Source: an uncultured cyanobacterium
GTDB taxonomy: Bacteria; Cyanobacteriota; Cyanobacteriia; Cyanobacteriales; Microcystaceae
Length of the DNA stretch: 64,000 bases
Reading direction: 5' to 3'
Assembly: GCA_963807635.1 (NCBI GenBank)
Contig: CAWEDJ010000105.1
Location: forward strand, 1-64,000
Shown: positions 51,441 to 63,987 of the stretch, in pieces
Layout of the letters: each line of letters starts with the position of its first letter
Numbering within the stretch: the stretch's first letter is position 1
The notes under the pieces: model-generated
Told to the model about the DNA's origin: nothing
What the model saw: the letters and a program-made list of their open reading frames with translations, nothing else
The model's database searches: none
Position numbers and translations under genes: made by a program

Positions 51441-51617
51441 ACTACTGTGTACACATACCTCTTTACCTCTCTAGACGTTTGATCCCCCTGCCTACGGCAT
51501 CCCCCTTAAAAAGGGGGATTCTTCTTACTGAGAGGAATTTAGCCCCCCTTATCAAGGGGGATAGGGGGGATCAAAACTTAAAAATTTAGATAGAAAGCTT
51601 TGTGTGTACGCGGCAGT
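51441..51617. mobile_element. 177-bp MITE with 8-bp target duplication
   Basis: Imperfect 17-bp TIRs (13/17) ACTACTGTGTACACATA / TGTGTGTACGCGGCAGT; CAAGGTTA at 51433-51440 and 51618-51625. Confidence 0.78.
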
Positions 51618-56393: not shown

Positions 56394-57737
56394 ATGATAT
56401 CTTCTGACCTTCGAGTTTTGATAATCGCTGAACACGCATCCCTAAATTTTGGTGGTGAAGCCGCTTTACCTCTGCATTATTTTCGCGTTCTTCGTAAACG
56501 TGGCATCGAAACTTGGTTAATTGTTCATGAACGCACAAAAACAGAACTCCAATCAAGATTTCCAGACGATATTAATCGGATATATTTTGTCCCTGATACA
56601 TTTTTGCATCGTTTACTTTGCAAACTAGGCAGTTCTTTGCCCCATAGGATATCTTTTTTTACTTTTGGTTTTTTATTAAGATTACTTACCCAGAGTCTTC
56701 AGAGAGGTCTGGCTAAACAAATTATTAGAGAGCAAAAAATAGATATTATTCATCAACCTATTCCTGTCTCTCCTAAAGATCCTTCAATGCTTTTTGACTT
56801 AGGCGTACCAATTATTATTGGTCCAATGAATGGGGGAATGAATTATCCCCCTGCATTTCAAAAAATGCAAAGTAGATTGGTGGGAGCAGCAATAAGTTTT
56901 GGACGTGCTTTATCTAGCTTTATGAACGTTGTTATCCCAGGTAAAGTTAAGGCAACAACCTTATTAGTTGCTAATGCACGAACAAGAGAAGCTCTGCCGT
57001 CAAGCGTTCGAGAGGTTCCTACGATTGAACTAGTTGAAAATGGGGTAGATTTATCCTTATGGATCAAAGATTTATCAGAAAAAATTGAGCCAAACGAAGA
57101 AAAATTTCAGGAAAAAGATCAATCAAATTTCACTCGTTTTGTCTTTATTGGAAGGTTAGTCGATTGGAAAGCAGTTGATTTGTTGTTAATCGCTTTTAAA
57201 CAGGTATTAGAAAAAATCCCTGCTCGGTTAGATATTATTGGAGAGGGAGACCAAAAAGCTAATTTAGAAGAAATTGCTAGAAATTTAAGTTTAATATCTT
57301 CTTCAAACGAGTTAAACTCTGATTTCTCTCAAACCAACCTTCGCTTTTTGGGGTGGTTATCCCAAGCTGATTGCGCTAAACAATTAGGAGAATCCGATGT
57401 TTTGGTTTTACCGAGTTTGTATGAATGTGGTGGTGCTGTTGTGTTAGAAGCGATGGCTTTGTCCTTACCCGTCATTGCAACTAATTGGGGCGGCCCTGCG
57501 GACTATCTGGATGATTCCTGCGGAATTTTGGTCAATCCAGATTCTAGGGAAGGCTTGATTTATGGCTTGGCGACGGCCATGTTCGATTTAGCGAATTCTC
57601 CTGAACTGCGACAATCTATGGGGAAAGCGGGAGCGCAAAGGGTCGTGAATTTTTTTGATTGGGATAAGAAGGGAGAAAAAATTCTGGAAATTTATCAGGA
57701 TAGTATTGATCGATATTCTCAGACGAGAAAACTCTAG
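56394..57737 (+). CDS. GT4 glycosyltransferase
   Basis: FIGRLVDWK, ECGGAVVLEAMA. Confidence 0.9.
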   Translation: MISSDLRVLIIAEHASLNFGGEAALPLHYFRVLRKRGIETWLIVHERTKTELQSRFPDDINRIYFVPDTFLHRLLCKLGSSLPHRISFFTFGFLLRLLTQSLQRGLAKQIIREQKIDIIHQPIPVSPKDPSMLFDLGVPIIIGPMNGGMNYPPAFQKMQSRLVGAAISFGRALSSFMNVVIPGKVKATTLLVANARTREALPSSVREVPTIELVENGVDLSLWIKDLSEKIEPNEEKFQEKDQSNFTRFVFIGRLVDWKAVDLLLIAFKQVLEKIPARLDIIGEGDQKANLEEIARNLSLISSSNELNSDFSQTNLRFLGWLSQADCAKQLGESDVLVLPSLYECGGAVVLEAMALSLPVIATNWGGPADYLDDSCGILVNPDSREGLIYGLATAMFDLANSPELRQSMGKAGAQRVVNFFDWDKKGEKILEIYQDSIDRYSQTRKL

Positions 57738-57814
57738 CGGCGATCGCGTGTTTGATCTAAGACTAATTCGATTCGGATTTGGCGATGGTTTTTATTGTTT
57801 GGCGATCGCGTTAT

Positions 57815-57898
57815 TCAGTCAGTGATATTCTCGATTGAGGATGTACTTTTTAGACTTTTAATATCTTTAATAAAAGTAGGAAGATAATTGGTTTTCAT
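57815..57898 (-). pseudogene. Truncated RelE/ParE-like toxin
   Basis: ATGA-coupled to antitoxin; MKTNYLPTFIKDIKSLK.. stops after 27 aa next to a HIP1 site. Confidence 0.55.
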
Positions 57899-58098
57899 TC
57901 TTTTTCTAATTCAATTAGGGCTTCCTCAAGGCTTAAGGGAGTTTCGCCTTTAACGTCTATCATGGCACGATAGAGTCCTTCATCTTCGTGGGTTTCAATC
58001 ATTTGTTGATAATCTTCAAAGTTAATGATGGCTTGCTGAATATGACCTTGATTATCAATAATCAATTCTTGAGCTAAGGGATAATCTTTTATGTTCAT
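57895..58098 (-). CDS. Putative antitoxin
   Basis: Acidic 67 aa, EDEGLYRAM..LSLEEAL. Confidence 0.7.
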   Translation of the reverse strand: MNIKDYPLAQELIIDNQGHIQQAIINFEDYQQMIETHEDEGLYRAMIDVKGETPLSLEEALIELEKE

Positions 58099-58103
58099 GA
58101 TTT

Positions 58104-58208
58104 TTACTCATTGTTATAGGGTTTTGAATTTTCTGCTAATGTAGCCTGAATTTTGGGTAGGAGGTCTTCGCAGTCTTGAAGGAGGGGAATTTCCAGTTGT
58201 TGAGTGAG
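58104..58208 (-). repeat. Decayed copy 3 of NLR 3' end
   Basis: Translates LTQQLEIPLLQDCEDLLPKIQ..stop. Confidence 0.7.
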
Positions 58209-58232
58209 AATGGGAGCTACTGACAAATGGCT

Positions 58233-58454
58233 TTACAGATTAAGGAATTCATCAATGCTAACTTGGCATTGTTTGAGAATATTATGAAGAGTCCCTTATC
58301 GGATTTCTTTATGATGAGGAATAGTGGTTTTTAAGCGCGTTTGAGGATTAAACCAAATTTCATGATCGCCTTTACCTGTTCGATAAAATTCAAAGCCTAT
58401 TTTTCTCAGTTTGCGGATGACTTCTCGGTAAGTAAAGCCAGATAGCTTGCCCAT
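58233..58454 (-). pseudogene. hicA: HicA toxin with nonsense codon
   Basis: MGKLSGFTYREVIRKL..GKGDHEIW..IPHHKEIR*GTLHNILKQ; TAA at 58296-58298. Confidence 0.82.
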
Positions 58455-58456
58455 TT

Positions 58457-58696
58457 CTACGATGCCATAAGGGGAATTTGAAAGTGACTTGCGGTCGTCA
58501 AGGTGATACAGGGATGTTCAGCTTTTGTTTGATCAAGTTCCAACAGGATCGGAATCAAATCTTTAGCGATTTCGATCGCCGCGTCTATGGTATCGGCTTC
58601 GGCAACGAGTCCTTGAATGTCGGGACTGGTCGCTACAAAGTAATTTTGATTGTTTTCTTGGCAGTATTCGATATTGAGGATAATTTGGTTTTGCAT
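58457..58696 (-). CDS. HicB-like antitoxin (DUF1902-like)
   Basis: FVATSPDIQGLVAEADT motif; directly upstream of hicA. Confidence 0.78.
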   Translation of the reverse strand: MQNQIILNIEYCQENNQNYFVATSPDIQGLVAEADTIDAAIEIAKDLIPILLELDQTKAEHPCITLTTASHFQIPLMAS

Positions 58697-58743
58697 ATTG
58701 ATCAATATTTTAAAATGGATAGAAAAAGTCAATTTTTTTGATA

Positions 58744-58849
58744 CTAGCTATTGTCCCCTAAGTTTTCCTGAATTTTTGCTAGGAGTTCTTCGCAGTCTTT
58801 GATTAAAGGAATACCTATTTCTTGGAAGAAGGTGAGGTCAGCTTGGCAA
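58744..58849 (-). repeat. Decayed copy 2 of NLR 3' end
   Basis: Translates CQADLTFFQEIGIPLIKDCEELLAKIQENLGDNS-stop. Confidence 0.85.
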
Positions 58850-59058
58850 TTAGAGTAAGTCTTGTTCAGACAGATTGGCAATTCTCATCAATGATTTGAG
58901 AGTACCAAGTTTTAAGTCTTGGTTACGATGGACTGGGATAGACAAAATTTGCTGACTATCTGGTTTTTGATAAATGTGGTGACTGCCTGATACTCGTTTT
59001 AAAAGCCATCCTTGTTGCTCAACAATTTTACAGAGTTTTTTCCTGAAATGGATTTCAT
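58850..59058 (-). CDS. hicA: HicA toxin; frameshift in A-run near 59040 (possibly sequencing error)
   Basis: MKSISG/KKLCK..GSHHIY..IPVHRNQDLKLGTL. Confidence 0.8.
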
Positions 59059-59270
59059 AGGGCAATTTCCACTAGCTGATCGTTGGTGCTGGGTTGACTG
59101 GATTCGTTGGCGACAGCTAACCATCCTTCAATGGCATCTTTTAAATTTTCAGTGACTTCTTCAAGGTTGTCGCCCTCGGTGATGCAACCAGGGAGAGCAG
59201 GAACCTCTGCCCAGTAGCCACCTTCTTCTGCGGGATGGATAATGGCTTTAATTTTCATGGTGTTGTTCAC
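59055..59270 (-). CDS. hicB: HicB antitoxin
   Basis: EEGGYWAEVPALPGCITEGD. Confidence 0.9.
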   Translation of the reverse strand: MNNTMKIKAIIHPAEEGGYWAEVPALPGCITEGDNLEEVTENLKDAIEGWLAVANESSQPSTNDQLVEIAL

Positions 59271-59288
59271 TCAAATTGAATTGATAGT

Positions 59289-59437
59289 TTATTGATTATC
59301 CCCTAAGTTTTCCTGAATGTTTGCTAGAAGTTCTTCGCAGTCTTTGACTAAAGGAATGCCAAGTTCTTGGGAGAGGGCGATCGCGTTTTGGCAATGCCTG
59401 AGAGCAAGTTGGAGTTGATTGGTTTGATGGCGATCGC
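59289..59437 (-). repeat. Decayed copy 1 of NLR 3' end, starting at a HIP1 site
   Basis: Translates HQTNQLQLALRHCQNAIALSQELGIPLVKDCEELLANIQENLGDNQ-stop. Confidence 0.9.
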
Positions 59438-59471
59438 AGTGAGAACGATTTAAACAGAAACTAATTCAGGT

Positions 59472-59693
59472 TCATGGATTAAGTTGTAATAGTTTAGAGC
59501 AATCAACGGTTTCCATGGCAAAGGTGTTACCTTTTTGGTCGGTAAAGTCAATCAGAAAAGCTTGTTGATCAAAGGACATTAAAACGGTTCCTAGTTGTCC
59601 ACGACGCAGCAAAATGGGCTGATGGGTAATTTTATGAGTAGCCGTTACATCTTCAGTTAGGGCAACTAAGTCATATTCTTGAATGGGTTCCAT
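59472..59693 (-). CDS. DUF4926-like protein
   Basis: EYDLVAL..LRRGQLGTV..FLIDF. Confidence 0.72.
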   Translation of the reverse strand: MEPIQEYDLVALTEDVTATHKITHQPILLRRGQLGTVLMSFDQQAFLIDFTDQKGNTFAMETVDCSKLLQLNP

Positions 59694-59729
59694 AATTGGC
59701 TTAATAGATTTTTTAAGGTTGCTAAATTA

Positions 59730-60080
59730 TTAACGATAGACTTCTCTCCGATGTTTACATTGCAAGATGAGGATAATTTGCTTCGCGTCATCAATCTCAT
59801 AGCGAACTCGATAATCACCAACACGCAAGCGATATTCCTGCTCGGAATTTTTTAATTTAACAATGCCAGGCGGACGGGGTTCTATTTCCAAACCCTTGAT
59901 TTTTTCGAGAATGCGATCTTTGACGGTATTGGGTAAATTATCAATCTGTTTTTCTACAGACTTAGAAATTTTGATATAGCGGTAGTCACGTGAGTGAGGT
60001 GTATTGGAGTCTTGTACAGTAAGCCTTTCAAGAATTTTATTGCCCCTCATACGACTGAATACCGCTATAACGTAGTTCAT
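59730..60080 (-). CDS. RelE/ParE toxin carrying in-frame MITE
   Basis: PRPPGIVKL..YRLRVGDYRVRY..HRREVY; 31 extra N-terminal residues. Confidence 0.88.
   Translation of the reverse strand: MNYVIAVFSRMRGNKILERLTVQDSNTPHSRDYRYIKISKSVEKQIDNLPNTVKDRILEKIKGLEIEPRPPGIVKLKNSEQEYRLRVGDYRVRYEIDDAKQIILILQCKHRREVYR
59975..60069. mobile_element. MITE with TA duplication inside relE
   Basis: TATAGCGGTA...TACCGCTATA ends; removing 93 bp restores MNYVIKISKS. Confidence 0.82.
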
Positions 60081-60087
60081 TGTAATT

Positions 60088-60321
60088 TTAGTCTTTGCTC
60101 AAGTATTGATCTAAGGTCACATAGTCGCCTGATTGATATTCGGCTCGAACTGCTTGAAGTTCTGCTAGGGTTTCCTCGTCATCTTGATAGGATTCTTCTT
60201 CTTCTTCAAAAATTTGTTGTTCTAACATTTCTAATAATTGTTGTTTTTGTGATAAGTCAAGGGAGTCAATTACTTCGGCTAAGGATTCAAAGGGGATTTT
60301 TAGATTGATTGTATTTGTCAT
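60088..60321 (-). CDS. Putative antitoxin
   Basis: Acidic 77 aa immediately upstream of relE. Confidence 0.72.
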   Translation of the reverse strand: MTNTINLKIPFESLAEVIDSLDLSQKQQLLEMLEQQIFEEEEESYQDDEETLAELQAVRAEYQSGDYVTLDQYLSKD

Positions 60322-60386
60322 GGTGCTTTTATTTTTATCTGGATAAAAAGTTAGATCCCGTTACAGATTTCTTACAAATTAAGGAA

Positions 60387-60554
60387 TTAAAAAATTTCCA
60401 ATAAAATGGGAATCAAATCTTTGACGATTTCTATTACCGCGTCTATCGTATCGGCTTCGGCAACAAGTCCTTGAATGTCGGGACTGGTCGCTACAAAATA
60501 ATTTTGATTGTTTTCTTGGCAGTATTCGATATTGAGGATAATTTGATTTTGCAT
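60387..60554 (-). pseudogene. Truncated second copy of the HicB-like gene
   Basis: 55 aa nearly identical to the N-terminal part of 58457-58696, including upstream spacer. Confidence 0.75.
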
Positions 60555-60599
60555 ATTGATTAATATTTTAAAATGGATAGAAAAGGTAATTTTTTGATA

Positions 60600-62951
60600 C
60601 TAATCATTGTCCTCTAAGTTTTTCTGAATTTTTGCTAGGAGTTCTTCGCAGTCTTTAACTAAAGGAATACCAAGTTCTTGGGAGAGGGTGAGGGCGTTTT
60701 GGCAATGGGTGAGGGCGGGTTGGGGTTGATTGGTTTGATGGGCGATTTCCGCAAGAGCTTTTAAACTATGGGCGATTAAATATTTAAAGTTAATCTCTTG
60801 GGAAATAACTAAGGATTCTTGAATTTTGGCTTCTGCTTCGCTGTAATTTTCAAGTTCGATCAATATCTCCCCTATATTGTGTAGAGCAATTGCCTCCCCT
60901 CGCCGCAAGTTAATTTTTTTACTAATGTCAAGAGATTTCTGGTTAGAGTCGATCGCCTCTGTATATCGCTTCAAGGAATGATAACAACGTCCTAAAGCCC
61001 ATAGAGAATTTGCCTCCCCTTCCTGATGGCCGATTTTTTTACTAATGTTGAGAGATTGCTGGTTAGAGTTGATCGCCTCTGTATATCGCTTCAAGGAATG
61101 ATAACAAAGTGCTAAATGCAATAGAGCGAGTGCCTCCCCTTCCTGATCGCCGATTTTTTTACTAATGTTGAGAGATTGCTGGTTAGATTCGATCGCCTCT
61201 GTATATTGCCCTAAGAAATAATAATAAAGTCCTAAATTCCCTAGAGCAAATGCTACTCTTTTTAGATCGCCCATTTTTTCGCTGATTTCAAGAAATTCCT
61301 TGTACTTGGATCTCGCTTCTGTATACTGCCCTAAGAAAGAATAATAAAGTCCTAAATTCATTAGACAACCTGCTACCACTTCCTGATAGTCCATTTTTTT
61401 ACTAATGTCGAGAGATTGCTGGGTAGAGTAGATCGCGTCTTTATACTTCCCCAAAAGATTATAACAATTGCCTAAATTCACTAGACAACCTGCCACTCCT
61501 TTCTGATCGTCCATTTTTTCGCTAATGCCGAGAGATTCCTTGTACTTGGCGATCGCTTTTTCATACTCCCCCAAGGAACAATAACAATTGCCCAGACGGT
61601 TGAACGACTTCCTATGACAATCTTGTTCCCGTTGACTCCCTGCGATCACCTGCTCGTATAATTGCGCTCTCTGACGATAAAGCCCTTGTAATTCCAAAAA
61701 TTGATCAACCGATTTATTTTTTCCTTCTCCCCCTCGCTCCTCATTCAAAATATCAAAAGCTAACTGCCATTCTCCCAATTCCCCTGCATGGTAAAACCCC
61801 TCTAAATACACCGTCAAATCCGCCAACGATTCCCAGGGAGGCGCGGGTAAATGGGCCAAAAAATAAGCCAACGCGGACTGATGCGCCGATCGCAATAGCT
61901 CAGAATCCGTTTGCTGTTGCACCACCATCGAAATTAAAGGCAAAAACTGAAACCGTCGCCGTTTTCCCTCTTTGGGTTCGGGGGGAAACTCCTGCAACAA
62001 CGACAAACGGGCCAAATCCCGTAAATCTTTCTCTGTTACCCCAGCCGTTAACCCCTGAGCTAACCCCAGATCAAAAATCCCTCGCAATACCGATAACCGC
62101 TTTAAAATATCCCCTAACCGTGCCGATAATCGCGACAAACTGGCCGCTACCACTTCCCTGACACAGGTTTCCGTATCACGGTGATAACCCTCCACCGTAA
62201 ACAAATCTAAGCCCAAGTTTTCCGCCTCTGTCACACAAACCTCTTCCCCCAACTCCTCCCGCATCCAACTCGATACCAGTTGCATCAAGAGGGGATGCCG
62301 CCCCATCTGGTTCACAAATTGGGCTAATTCTTTCTTCGTTCCCGTTAAACCATAGTCTTCCGTCACCAAACGCATCGCATCGGCTTCTGCTAACCCCTTT
62401 AAGGGCAACCAATAACAACGCGATCGCAAATTGGGGGCCAACGTTGGCTGTTCCCGACTGGTGAGCAACAGCTTACTGTTACCCCCGTTCCCTAGCCATT
62501 GGCTCAAAAATTGACCATAAACCGACTTCCCTTCTGCTGGTATTACCGTTTCCATATTGTCCAACACCAACAAACAAGGCTCGGCGATTAACCCTGCGAT
62601 TATCTGCCCAATTAACGTCTCCTCGTCCCATTTTTCATCATAAGCTTGTCCTAACTGCTCCAATAACCATCGCCCAAATTGCGCCAAGGGGTAAGGCTGA
62701 ATAAAATTCACCCACAACACCCGCCAATCAGGGGTTAACTGCTCTTTGAACTTCACCGCTAAAGCCGATTTCCCATAGCCTCCTGCGGCGGTCATCCCGA
62801 TTAAGCGTACTTTGTCATTGCTTAGGGCGGTTTGTAGTTCATTTATTTCATCCTGTCGTCCCTGCCATTCATCTACAGGTGGAGGTGTGGTATTCAGGGT
62901 TGCTGATTGCGTTGGGGCTAACTTTGTCTGTTTTCCATCAGACGAATCCAG
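60600..62951 (-). CDS. NB-ARC/STAND NTPase with TPR repeats (bacterial NLR); start unresolved
   Basis: Open from 62951: EWQGRQDE, GGYGKS, LLVLDN, TSR, HPL, then 40-aa TPRs. Confidence 0.88.
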   Translation of the reverse strand: MDSSDGKQTKLAPTQSATLNTTPPPVDEWQGRQDEINELQTALSNDKVRLIGMTAAGGYGKSALAVKFKEQLTPDWRVLWVNFIQPYPLAQFGRWLLEQLGQAYDEKWDEETLIGQIIAGLIAEPCLLVLDNMETVIPAEGKSVYGQFLSQWLGNGGNSKLLLTSREQPTLAPNLRSRCYWLPLKGLAEADAMRLVTEDYGLTGTKKELAQFVNQMGRHPLLMQLVSSWMREELGEEVCVTEAENLGLDLFTVEGYHRDTETCVREVVAASLSRLSARLGDILKRLSVLRGIFDLGLAQGLTAGVTEKDLRDLARLSLLQEFPPEPKEGKRRRFQFLPLISMVVQQQTDSELLRSAHQSALAYFLAHLPAPPWESLADLTVYLEGFYHAGELGEWQLAFDILNEERGGEGKNKSVDQFLELQGLYRQRAQLYEQVIAGSQREQDCHRKSFNRLGNCYCSLGEYEKAIAKYKESLGISEKMDDQKGVAGCLVNLGNCYNLLGKYKDAIYSTQQSLDISKKMDYQEVVAGCLMNLGLYYSFLGQYTEARSKYKEFLEISEKMGDLKRVAFALGNLGLYYYFLGQYTEAIESNQQSLNISKKIGDQEGEALALLHLALCYHSLKRYTEAINSNQQSLNISKKIGHQEGEANSLWALGRCYHSLKRYTEAIDSNQKSLDISKKINLRRGEAIALHNIGEILIELENYSEAEAKIQESLVISQEINFKYLIAHSLKALAEIAHQTNQPQPALTHCQNALTLSQELGIPLVKDCEELLAKIQKNLEDND
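60890..61600 (-). repeat. 120-bp tandem TPR-coding repeats (about 6 units)
   Basis: Sequence lines 120 bp apart are near-identical. Confidence 0.9.
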
Positions 62952-63368
62952 TCAAAAAGTTACAGGCCCATTGAAAGTATTTCCCTGAACAACATTCTTG
63001 ATTTGCTCGGCTAACTTCTGAGAATTAATAACGGTTGTCTGTTGCGTCTGAGATTTAATTGAATTCACAAGGTCTTTTAGTAAAGGTTCCGTTTCTACCA
63101 TTACGACTAATTCCTGCATCCTTTGAGCTACTTCAGGATTAGCCTTTGCGGCTGCTTCCGTTTCTAATACCGCTTTCCCATAATTCAAGGGCTGTTCAGG
63201 AGCTTTTTCAATCGCTGTGACCGTATCGGGTGATTCGTTTCTTAAGGAATTCAAAAAATCACCTGTTTGTTGCCAAAGAGTTTCAGCTACTTTTTCACCC
63301 GTTTTTTCAAGGGCTTTAGTTGCTACTACTGAACCAATGGCGATCGCGGCGGTTGTGAAGGGTTCCAT
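62952..63368 (-). CDS. Bell-like helical effector with C-terminal amyloid-like motif
   Basis: N-terminal hydrophobic helix MEPFTTAAIAIGSVVATKALEK; ends IKNVVQGNTFNGPVTF; adjacent to NLR. Confidence 0.7.
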   Translation of the reverse strand: MEPFTTAAIAIGSVVATKALEKTGEKVAETLWQQTGDFLNSLRNESPDTVTAIEKAPEQPLNYGKAVLETEAAAKANPEVAQRMQELVVMVETEPLLKDLVNSIKSQTQQTTVINSQKLAEQIKNVVQGNTFNGPVTF

Positions 63369-63525
63369 CGTCTTAATCAGGAGATTTTACAGGATTTTTA
63401 AATTCTAATACATCCATATCGAAATAACCAGCGATCGCATTTTAGTAGTGGAGATTGAGAACAGCGATCGCGTTAATTTAGAAAGATATGATAGAAATGT
63501 AAGCACAGCAAGGAGTCGTAAACAA

Positions 63526-63987
63526 ATGACACAAGCCTTAAACTTAGTAAAATCGCCCACAACACTATACGATAACGACTTCTTGCAATGGACAGAAATA
63601 ACGATCGCCCAATTACAGAATAGAGACTTTAAACAACTAGATATTGCCAACTTAATAGAGGAAATAGACTCATTGGGAAAAGCACAGAAAAATGCCTTCA
63701 AAGGACAAATTCGGGCATTAATAGAGCATATCTTAAAAAGATGTTATGTCGAGATGCCCTTGGAATATCCTGGCTGGGAACGGACAATTCGTAACATTCG
63801 CCCCGAAATTGAAGACTTGATTGAAACTTCTCCCAGCTTGCAAAATGACTTTTCCGATGTTTTAGATAAGGTTTATCAGCAATGCCTCAAAAAACTACGG
63901 CCAGAATATAAAAATACAAACTTTCCTGATACTTGGCAATTTTCGCGATCGCTTGATGATCTTCTGAATTTAGATGTATGGGAATAA
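63526..63987 (+). CDS. DUF29 family protein
   Basis: LYDNDFLQW..LDIANLIEEIDSLG..SPSL. Confidence 0.88.
   Translation: MTQALNLVKSPTTLYDNDFLQWTEITIAQLQNRDFKQLDIANLIEEIDSLGKAQKNAFKGQIRALIEHILKRCYVEMPLEYPGWERTIRNIRPEIEDLIETSPSLQNDFSDVLDKVYQQCLKKLRPEYKNTNFPDTWQFSRSLDDLLNLDVWE

Follow-up and report, generated by a model that had tools for sequence, protein, structure and literature searches.

We analyzed a 64,000-nt window (positions 1 to 64,000 of contig CAWEDJ010000105.1, referred to here as C105) from the genome of an uncultured Microcystaceae cyanobacterium (GCA_963807635.1, referred to here as G000; 4.0 Mb; 93.7% complete), whose octamers, which we take to be the HIP1 motif, point to a cyanobacterial genome. 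Near the end of the window lies a locus in which a NOD-like receptor (NLR)-type gene is followed by toxin-antitoxin (TA) genes and by extra copies of its own 3' end. All of its genes are on the minus strand and are described here in the direction of reading. The first open reading frame (ORF; 62952..63368) encodes a helical, Bell-like protein of 138 amino acids (aa) with an MEP start and an N/Q/G-rich C-terminal motif, and it ends with a TGA in the frame of the NLR gene. This TGA (62954-62952), an 8-nt spacer, and a 5-bp hairpin (62943-62926) make up a predicted readthrough element (62923..62954), proposed on the basis of covariation among 17 sequences and a pattern search. The NLR-type open frame that follows (60600..62951; 783 codons) encodes a STAND NTPase with tetratricopeptide repeats (TPRs). 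An NB-ARC match was obtained only weakly, in the NLR orthologue L032.

The 3' end of the NLR gene (60600..60745; stop codon, 60600-60602), the core of which encodes LGIPLVKDCEELLAKIQ, was used as the reference copy of the repeat. It is followed by a truncated HicB/DUF1902 antitoxin gene without HicA (60387..60554; 55 aa), a putative antitoxin gene without a family match (60088..60321; 77 aa) that is usually the partner of ParE in related arrays, a ParE/RelE-type toxin gene (59730..60080; PF05016), and a DUF4926 gene with a frameshift near its end (59472..59693), whose frequent partner DUF6883 is missing. Repeat copy 1 (59289..59434; stop codon, 59289-59291) heads a type b HicB/HicA pair, in which the antitoxin gene (59055..59258) had a family match and the toxin gene (58850..59058) is frameshifted near its start. 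Repeat copy 2 (58744..58850; stop codon, 58744-58746) heads a type a pair composed of an intact HicB/DUF1902 gene (58457..58696) and a HicA gene (58233..58454) with a premature stop codon at 58296-58298. Repeat copy 3 (58104..58225; stop codon, 58104-58106), a mosaic whose left part is linked to HicA and whose right part is linked to RelB, precedes an intact RelB-like antitoxin gene (57895..58098; PF18506) and a RelE remnant of about 20 codons (57801..57898). The remnant is joined to 35 nt (57801-57835) that match the left junction of a further repeat copy in the related locus L095 and that mark where a fifth copy was deleted.

All four toxin genes in the window are damaged (i.e., an insertion in ParE, a frameshift in one HicA gene, a premature stop codon in the other, and the deletion of most of RelE), and four of the five antitoxin genes are whole. 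The ParE insertion (59974-60069) is a 96-nt inverted-repeat element that interrupts the gene in frame near its start. It has 25-nt terminal inverted repeats, near-full copies on contigs C75 (99%) and C71 (93%), and a partial copy on C82, and relatives (contigs of runs X2 and X10) lack it at the ParE site. Given that no reads from the source of the window were found (best share, 0.16; two RNA runs with 6% of words), the single-base lesions in these genes could be sequencing errors.

A blastn search with the last 200 nt of the NLR gene recovered the three extra copies at 59295-59434 (88% over 141 nt; E = 2e-44), 58750-58850 (88% over 101 nt; E = 8e-31), and 58146-58208 (78% over 63 nt; E = 2e-7), all on the minus strand and where a sequence-only reading of the window had placed them. 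That reading had also counted 6 differences from the NLR in copy 1 and 9 in copy 2 over the last 34 aa and had described copy 3 as more diverged; we reproduced both counts and obtained 17 for copy 3. It had further described a different, co-oriented TA module behind each copy. TA modules are indeed present, and all of them are co-oriented in the window, but not every module differs, because the HicB/DUF1902 gene that begins the NLR-adjacent module duplicates, in truncated form, the gene that follows copy 2 (316 nt; 89%). A genome-wide dispersed repeat was rejected as an explanation, as a nucleotide hidden Markov model found nothing in the genome beyond the four copies at the locus and a single paralogous gene end on contig C21. 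Misassembly is unlikely because such arrays are present in genomes assembled into one or two contigs (G014, G015, G079, and G087) and because an independent 5.3-kb contig (run X10) matches 57728-58795 in one piece, spanning copy 3.

We scanned 89 genomes of the family with the last 48 residues of the NLR and obtained a match in 30, single ends and paralogues included. A related-locus lookup gave only 5 loci. We took the regions of the matching genomes together with 41 metagenome loci. Of the 52 genome loci scanned, 35 were mapped; the others had no match, contained distant paralogue ends, or were duplicates. The counts exclude two loci: L078, whose arrangement is inverted, and L090, which shares a contig with L057. 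Among 74 loci, one repeat copy was present in 44, two in 14, three in 9, four in 6 (e.g., the Crocosphaera genome locus L049), and five in 1. The 30 multicopy arrays include genome-derived ones from 17 genomes of eight genera, closed assemblies among them, and the others are metagenomic. The genes behind the repeats form a shared pool composed of HicAB (two types), RelB/RelE, a ParE pair, Phd/PIN, a MazF pair, DUF433/DUF5615, DUF4160/DUF2442, DUF6883/DUF4926, XisH/XisI, DUF2283, and unnamed genes. The first slot behind the anchor was taken by 12 different genes, and 100 of 316 family pairs occurred in both orders, indicating a shuffled pool. Cassette order is thus not fixed across relatives, and the view of the locus as an array of variable cassettes, with the NLR 3' end as its anchor, was borne out.

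Comparisons between related loci revealed where the arrays differ. L095 shares the three distal modules of the window as a single block (1,448 nt; 93.9%) and differs in the part beside the NLR, which is the NLR-proximal difference in a relative that had been anticipated. L094 corresponds to L058 minus its first block, and G004 has only the RelB module behind its NLR. The distal end of the array is also variable, and blocks recombine through shared TA genes. At a second, sdhA-linked site, the TPR-type NLR is sometimes replaced by a NACHT-HEAT gene or another NB-ARC gene, and the array still opens with a tail copy; whole sensor bodies thus appear to be swapped there. In five of the sdhA-linked loci (L038, L061, L075, L084, and L088), the replacement sensor is joined to the tail copy by one common junction. 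The N-terminal part of the NLR varies as well, with EAD4 recognized by Pfam and a TIR-like domain, a helix-turn-helix-like domain, or a short motif recognized by inspection. Within the NLR gene of the window, TPR units of 120 nt at 60833-61587 are 72 to 80% identical to one another; this region is the most divergent part in relatives, and the number of units differs.

Further arrangements of the tail were seen at single loci. Two tail copies are inverted and divergent in L078 (G112:C350), with modules on both sides. Long decayed NLR fragments lie upstream of the intact gene in G014 (L031:1013-2048), and longer internal NLR pieces lie between the repeats in L060 (G110). A C-rich/G-rich hairpin repeat occurs just after the core of a tail copy in L032, L033, L062, L067, and L113, and a similar inverted repeat is present elsewhere in the window, at 51499-51562.

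The sequence-only reading had taken the divergence of the repeats as a clock, which corresponds to a strictly chronological array: with each new NLR allele, one module is gained proximally, and the displaced tails age where they lie. Consistent with that scheme, differences in the window rise from copy 1 to copy 3, the 5' extent of the copies falls (85, 50, and 30 nt), L095 combines the same three distal modules with a different proximal part, and gene integrity drops with rank (see below). However, the correlation between rank and identity to the array's own NLR end was not significant (20 copies in eight arrays; rho = -0.26; p = 0.28), the proximal copy being the closer one in 10 pairs and the distal copy in 6, with 3 ties. 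In G014, the trend is reversed, i.e., the most distal copy is the longest and the closest to the NLR end. Both the pairs found in either order and the variable distal ends also argue against a strict sequence of additions. The aged look of copy 3 is due to its mosaic nature: over the left 60 nt, it is 90 to 92% identical to G014 and G003 copies that follow the same HicA gene, and over the right 60 nt, it is 93 to 95% identical to the live NLR ends of G004 and G003. Differences between the copies and the NLR fall at codon positions 1, 2, and 3 in 27, 10, and 40 cases (20 synonymous and 42 nonsynonymous codons), and 5 of 54 copies contain a stop codon; this mixed spectrum does not separate ageing from allelic import. 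The strict form of the chronology is therefore unlikely, being refuted as a rule by G014 and the reversed orders, and it survives as a bias.

Mosaicism was not restricted to copy 3. The sequence on the left of the core tracks the upstream module, and that on the right tracks the downstream module. In the group of the window, the nearest neighbor of the left 45 nt shared the upstream gene in 12 of 16 cases and the downstream gene in 7 of 16, and the nearest neighbor of the right 37 nt shared the downstream gene in 12 of 16 and the upstream gene in 3 of 16. Junctions lie at varying positions (inside the core, after +32, near +45, or near +90), and the 5' extents of the repeats range from 2 to 101 nt. 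Conservation is highest in the 33-nt core, where variation falls at third codon positions and tracks the host genus (identity of 86% within genera versus 77% between genera when the downstream module is the same). These varied junctions and the codon-wise, genus-following core fit exchange by homology and not a fixed recognition site. In L074, a member of the sdhA-linked arrays, the XisI-linked copy matches a G014 copy at 31 of 33 nt and the local NLR type at 24 of 33 nt, a difference pointing to a probable exchange between genera.

We searched for the machinery of known module-exchanging systems. As the sequence-only reading had stated, no integrase is encoded on the contig; the six PF00589 matches (integron/tyrosine recombinases) in G000 are all elsewhere. 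No recombinase ORF lies between the repeats in any multicopy locus, although IS630 is present in two arrays. None of the window copies had an attC-like fold on either strand (eight strands; z = +0.4 to +1.6 versus shuffles), and the repeats had no match in Rfam. An integron or a cluster of attC sites lacking integron-integrase (CALIN) was rejected on these grounds. Reverse transcriptase matches in G000 occur only on C46 and C75, with none on the contig of the locus; a diversity-generating retroelement (DGR) was rejected because no reverse transcriptase is nearby and because only 1 of 13, 4 of 10, and 3 of 14 mismatches fall at an A of the copy. The locus also departs from integrative elements: the duplicated 3' end that restores the target gene is present, but an integrase and a fixed crossover core are not. 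As for a phage or plasmid carrier, the repeat had no match in viral contigs, and plasmids matched single TA genes only.

A host site-specific recombinase of the tyrosine/Xer type might still act in trans, with the core serving as its att site, in the manner of pdif modules or of integron arrays without an integrase. The repeats here are direct and protein coded. Such an enzyme would account for the high conservation of the 33-nt core and for the switch from upstream-linked to downstream-linked sequence, which falls near the core in pooled pairs, and tyrosine recombinases are encoded on other contigs. Against it, conservation follows codons and not a DNA motif, the junctions are variable, the attC-like fold is lacking, and the repeats enclose no recombinase ORF. 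We consider this explanation quite unlikely. From the absence of a recombinase and of an attC fold in these searches, the varied junctions, the codon-wise core, and the foreign core in L074, we infer that exchange at the gene tail is driven by homology. The NLR tail (last 30 to 150 nt) repeated before TA modules is likely a shared homology handle for host homologous recombination. ComEC and DprA are encoded in the genome.

Position in the array was related to gene integrity. In a set of 300 genes from 43 anchored loci, scored with a lenient test under which the frameshifted HicA gene and the interrupted ParE gene of the window counted as intact, the intact fraction was 79/85 at ranks 1 and 2, 69/85 at ranks 3 to 5, and 86/130 beyond. 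With one genome per species, the fractions were 39/44, 39/48, and 49/71, and the gradient also held for unique alleles. Per locus, the proximal half was more intact in 15 cases and the distal half in 2, with 10 ties (p = 0.002). Toxin genes were broken more often (28/81) than antitoxin genes (21/116; p = 0.012). Polarity is thus real but statistical.

The upstream ORF and its junction with the NLR gene form the second part of the locus. The ORF matches the published description of Bell, i.e., a short helical protein with an N-terminal hydrophobic helix and a C-terminal motif, adjoining an NB-ARC/NACHT-type gene. According to the available text of two reports, Bell/BASS proteins are helical, 120 to 150 aa long, with an MEP-type N-terminal helix and a C-terminal N/Q/G-rich motif, and they are encoded directly upstream of an NB-ARC/NACHT-repeat gene (10.1101/2020.01.06.895854; 10.1101/2024.11.07.622273). 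The terms "stop codon," "readthrough," and "read-through" are absent from that text in both, supplements aside. The ORF had no Pfam or NCBIfam match over the cutoff; its Atlas neighbors include a cluster with Pfam HetE-N on 20% of its members, which is a lead, and a fold search with its model was uninformative (best Z, 5.6; root mean square deviation, 5.3 over 92 residues; unrelated protein). The protein layout and gene order are the same as those of the Bell/BASS-NLR pairs, for which amyloid formation by the motif and signaling are traits of the published systems. The difference is that the NLR has neither a start nor a motif of its own here and continues the effector frame past a UGA with a hairpin: the frame has no ATG, GTG, or TTG before codon 52, which lies at the Walker A motif, and the in-frame TGA precedes it. 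A separate NLR with its own matching N-terminal motif is absent from the window and present in a paralogue on C55 (C55:7361-9961; L155), a two-gene Bell-like/NLR pair in which the first gene ends with TAG. Both designs, UGA joined and two gene, coexist in one genome. Two further loci in G000 (C50:43176 and C69:12492; L153 and L154) have the Bell-like-UGA-hairpin-STAND order; the former is followed, close to the contig end, by a DUF4926 gene, and no tail copy is present there.

The same TGA-CTG junction occurs in G014, G004, and G003 behind different upstream C termini, and in a contig of run X8, only the C-terminal segment of the upstream ORF is swapped. We compared the 30 best homologue loci in the order. 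In 15 of them, the window included, the upstream ORF ends with TGA, followed by at least 124 in-frame codons. In 11, it ends with TAA or TAG, with an in-frame continuation of at most 67 codons (i.e., a long continuation in none of the 11), and in 9 of these the next ORF is separately started and carries its own copy of the motif. The remaining loci are three other TGA cases and one stop-free fusion (L136). No fused long forms of the Bell-like family were found at an E value of 1e-10, which is weak evidence. In the alignment of 17 sequences, a 5-bp stem begins 8 nt after the UGA, with 96.5% of cells paired and three of the five pairs compensated. The covariation score was reached by none of 500 shuffles, and slid controls paired at 9 to 46%; given that the structure was drawn by hand from the same MAFFT-aligned sequences, this test leans toward the result.

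The element was also found by searches based on the hairpin. Among TGA-separated tandem ORF pairs in G000, 3 of 34 had the hairpin, and all three were effector-STAND pairs; five TAA-separated pairs with a hairpin were counted only. A frame-blind pattern gave 38 matches in 28 of 401 genomes, compared with 2 control matches. Of 30 pattern loci that were fetched (3 of which repeat loci of the homologue set and 1 of which is G000's own), 25 had an upstream ORF (116 to 211 codons) joined in frame to a downstream ORF, 24 of them with a Walker A motif, and 5 were chance matches. In L149, L150, L152, L142, and L166, the element is followed by 97 to 240 in-frame codons without Walker A, and in the first three of these a longer ORF overlaps in another frame.

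The junction probably represents programmed UGA readthrough yielding both a free effector and an effector-NLR fusion with a matching motif, as judged from the conserved frame and structure. Bacterial UGA readthrough amounts to a few percent in the accessible part of one report (PMC7918605). Readthrough here would give abundant free effector and a rarer effector-NLR fusion bearing the same C-terminal motif. Viral readthrough elements, as far as the available text describes them, have a UGA-CUA/CGG context and a structure at least 8 nt downstream (PMC13517186). The element shares with them a UGA followed by CUN, an 8-nt spacer, a stem-loop, and two ORFs in frame, and it differs in being bacterial and chromosomal, in having a much smaller stem (5 to 7 bp), and in that its readthrough is a prediction. 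Reinitiation at the next codon or insertion of selenocysteine, in place of near-cognate readthrough, is rather unlikely. The next codon is often CTG, a possible start, but it is CTA, GTA, or ATC in many loci. The hairpin sits near what we presume to be the position expected of a bacterial SECIS element, but SelA (PF03841) had no match in the 93.7% complete G000, and the element had no match in Rfam. The lack of a long in-frame continuation in the TAA/TAG homologues counts against both.

The explanation that we favor as a whole combines TA exchange through the tail handle, positional decay, a UGA-joined head, and a role in defense, and we consider it probable. DNA from a relative would be taken up, probably by natural transformation, and its two sides would pair with the NLR body and with a short tail copy, respectively. 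The NLR gene would retain a complete end, the donor block would enter the first slot, and the old tail with its module would shift downstream. Recombination between tail copies or shared TA genes would remove or reorder blocks. The right part of the repeat would provide a stop codon and a leader for the next module, so the modules are likely read from the NLR operon. First genes begin about 10 to 50 nt after the stop codon of the repeat. Modules near the NLR would remain intact, and those farther away would decay, with toxin genes affected more than antitoxin genes. Judged from its gene families, the locus most likely serves abortive anti-phage or anti-plasmid defense; PADLOC gave only generic TPR-type matches at the locus, and NCBIfam gave nothing specific.

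Several observations weigh against this explanation. Many modules have no repeat in front of them, and 11 loci (one named Pseudanabaena) have the same NLR tail in one copy and no module of the panel. Near homogeneity of the copies in the sdhA-linked group leaves only a weak association of the left part with the upstream gene between -36 and -1. Promoter-like sites numbered 11, compared with 12.4 in shuffles, and the promoter and terminator scan was at chance level. The p values for polarity are overstated because the loci are related, the gradient may be due to expression and not to age, the first-slot gene of the window is broken, and L061 and L066 run opposite to the gradient. The hairpin of the window taken alone is no more stable than shuffles (z = -0.62). 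Finally, gain and loss are indistinguishable from the junctions (G004 and the L094/L058 pair). This bears on the earlier proposal that the NLR C terminus is replaced by incoming alleles, newest first: the tail does change with the first module, but "incoming" and "newest first" are still conjectural because gain and loss leave identical junctions.

Some of these points would also suit neutral debris, i.e., a TA-rich hotspot built by tandem duplication and illegitimate insertion, with the repeats as passive scars. The 316-nt duplication of tail plus HicB in the window, the damage to all four of its toxin genes, and the modules without a repeat are in line with such a history. Nevertheless, different genera share tail-module junctions, which are found at live NLR ends and also in internal copies, 12 genes rotate through the first slot, and the genes at ranks 1 and 2 are largely intact (79/85), making passive scarring quite improbable.

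We compared the array with known systems. Integrons and attC clusters consist of repeat-delimited, shuffled small modules that are rich in TA genes and show a proximal-to-distal gradient. The array resembles them in its shuffled, repeat-bounded TA modules and in its gradient, but it has no IntI on the contig and no attC fold, and its repeat is a coding gene tail that drifts at synonymous sites and has variable crossover points. Tandem integrative elements at gene 3' ends restore the target end and leave extra 3'-end copies bounding the insertions; the units here differ in being TA units of 0.5 to 3 kb without an integrase, a relaxase, or a fixed att core. In the orphan-module arrays of polymorphic toxins (cdiA-CT/cdiI, rhs-CT/rhsI, and mafB-CT/mafI), as covered by the accessible part of one source, modules are exchanged by recombination with the lead gene, and no dedicated recombinase is involved (PMC4436062). 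The likeness to these arrays drawn by the sequence-only reading stands in that a region homologous to the lead gene precedes the modules and that module sets differ between strains. It does not extend to a toxin domain fused to the lead protein: in the same source, the repeat precedes a toxin domain that ends up fused to a secreted carrier (PMC4436062), whereas the repeat here includes the stop codon, only the last 5 to 20 NLR residues change, and the cargo is made up of free-standing type II TA operons that follow the gene for a cytoplasmic STAND-TPR protein. The array works like polymorphic-toxin orphan arrays and resembles integrons in cargo and gradient, yet it falls outside the definitions of both and outside those of DGRs and integrative elements. 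In the literature searched, which did not extend to most subscription journals and bioRxiv supplements, neither the array nor the UGA element was found described. We tentatively suggest, with less than even confidence, that the locus is a recombinase-free analogue of an integron in which the NLR tail is a self-renewing pad for loading TA modules, combined with a new UGA-hairpin readthrough head.

If this is true, a defense hotspot gains, orders, and discards TA modules by means of a repeated gene tail and host recombination alone, and fresh TA modules from neighboring strains and genera are loaded into the expressed end of a defense operon. Since position predicts decay, the locus would be a tractable, natural test of whether chromosomal TA modules persist by addiction, expression, or defense value. 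The readthrough element weighs as much as the array in our overall assessment. If true, it would represent a type of structured, programmed readthrough rarely met in chromosomal genes of bacteria, by which a cell-death effector and an NLR with the same amyloid motif arise from one reading frame. It would also account for effector ORFs that are paired with an NLR apparently devoid of a matching motif; such NLRs would be misannotated as starting at the Walker A methionine.

Beyond the Bell-like ORF, a DUF29 gene lies at 63448-63987 and is divergent from the locus; DUF29 genes also flank the locus in G004 and G003.

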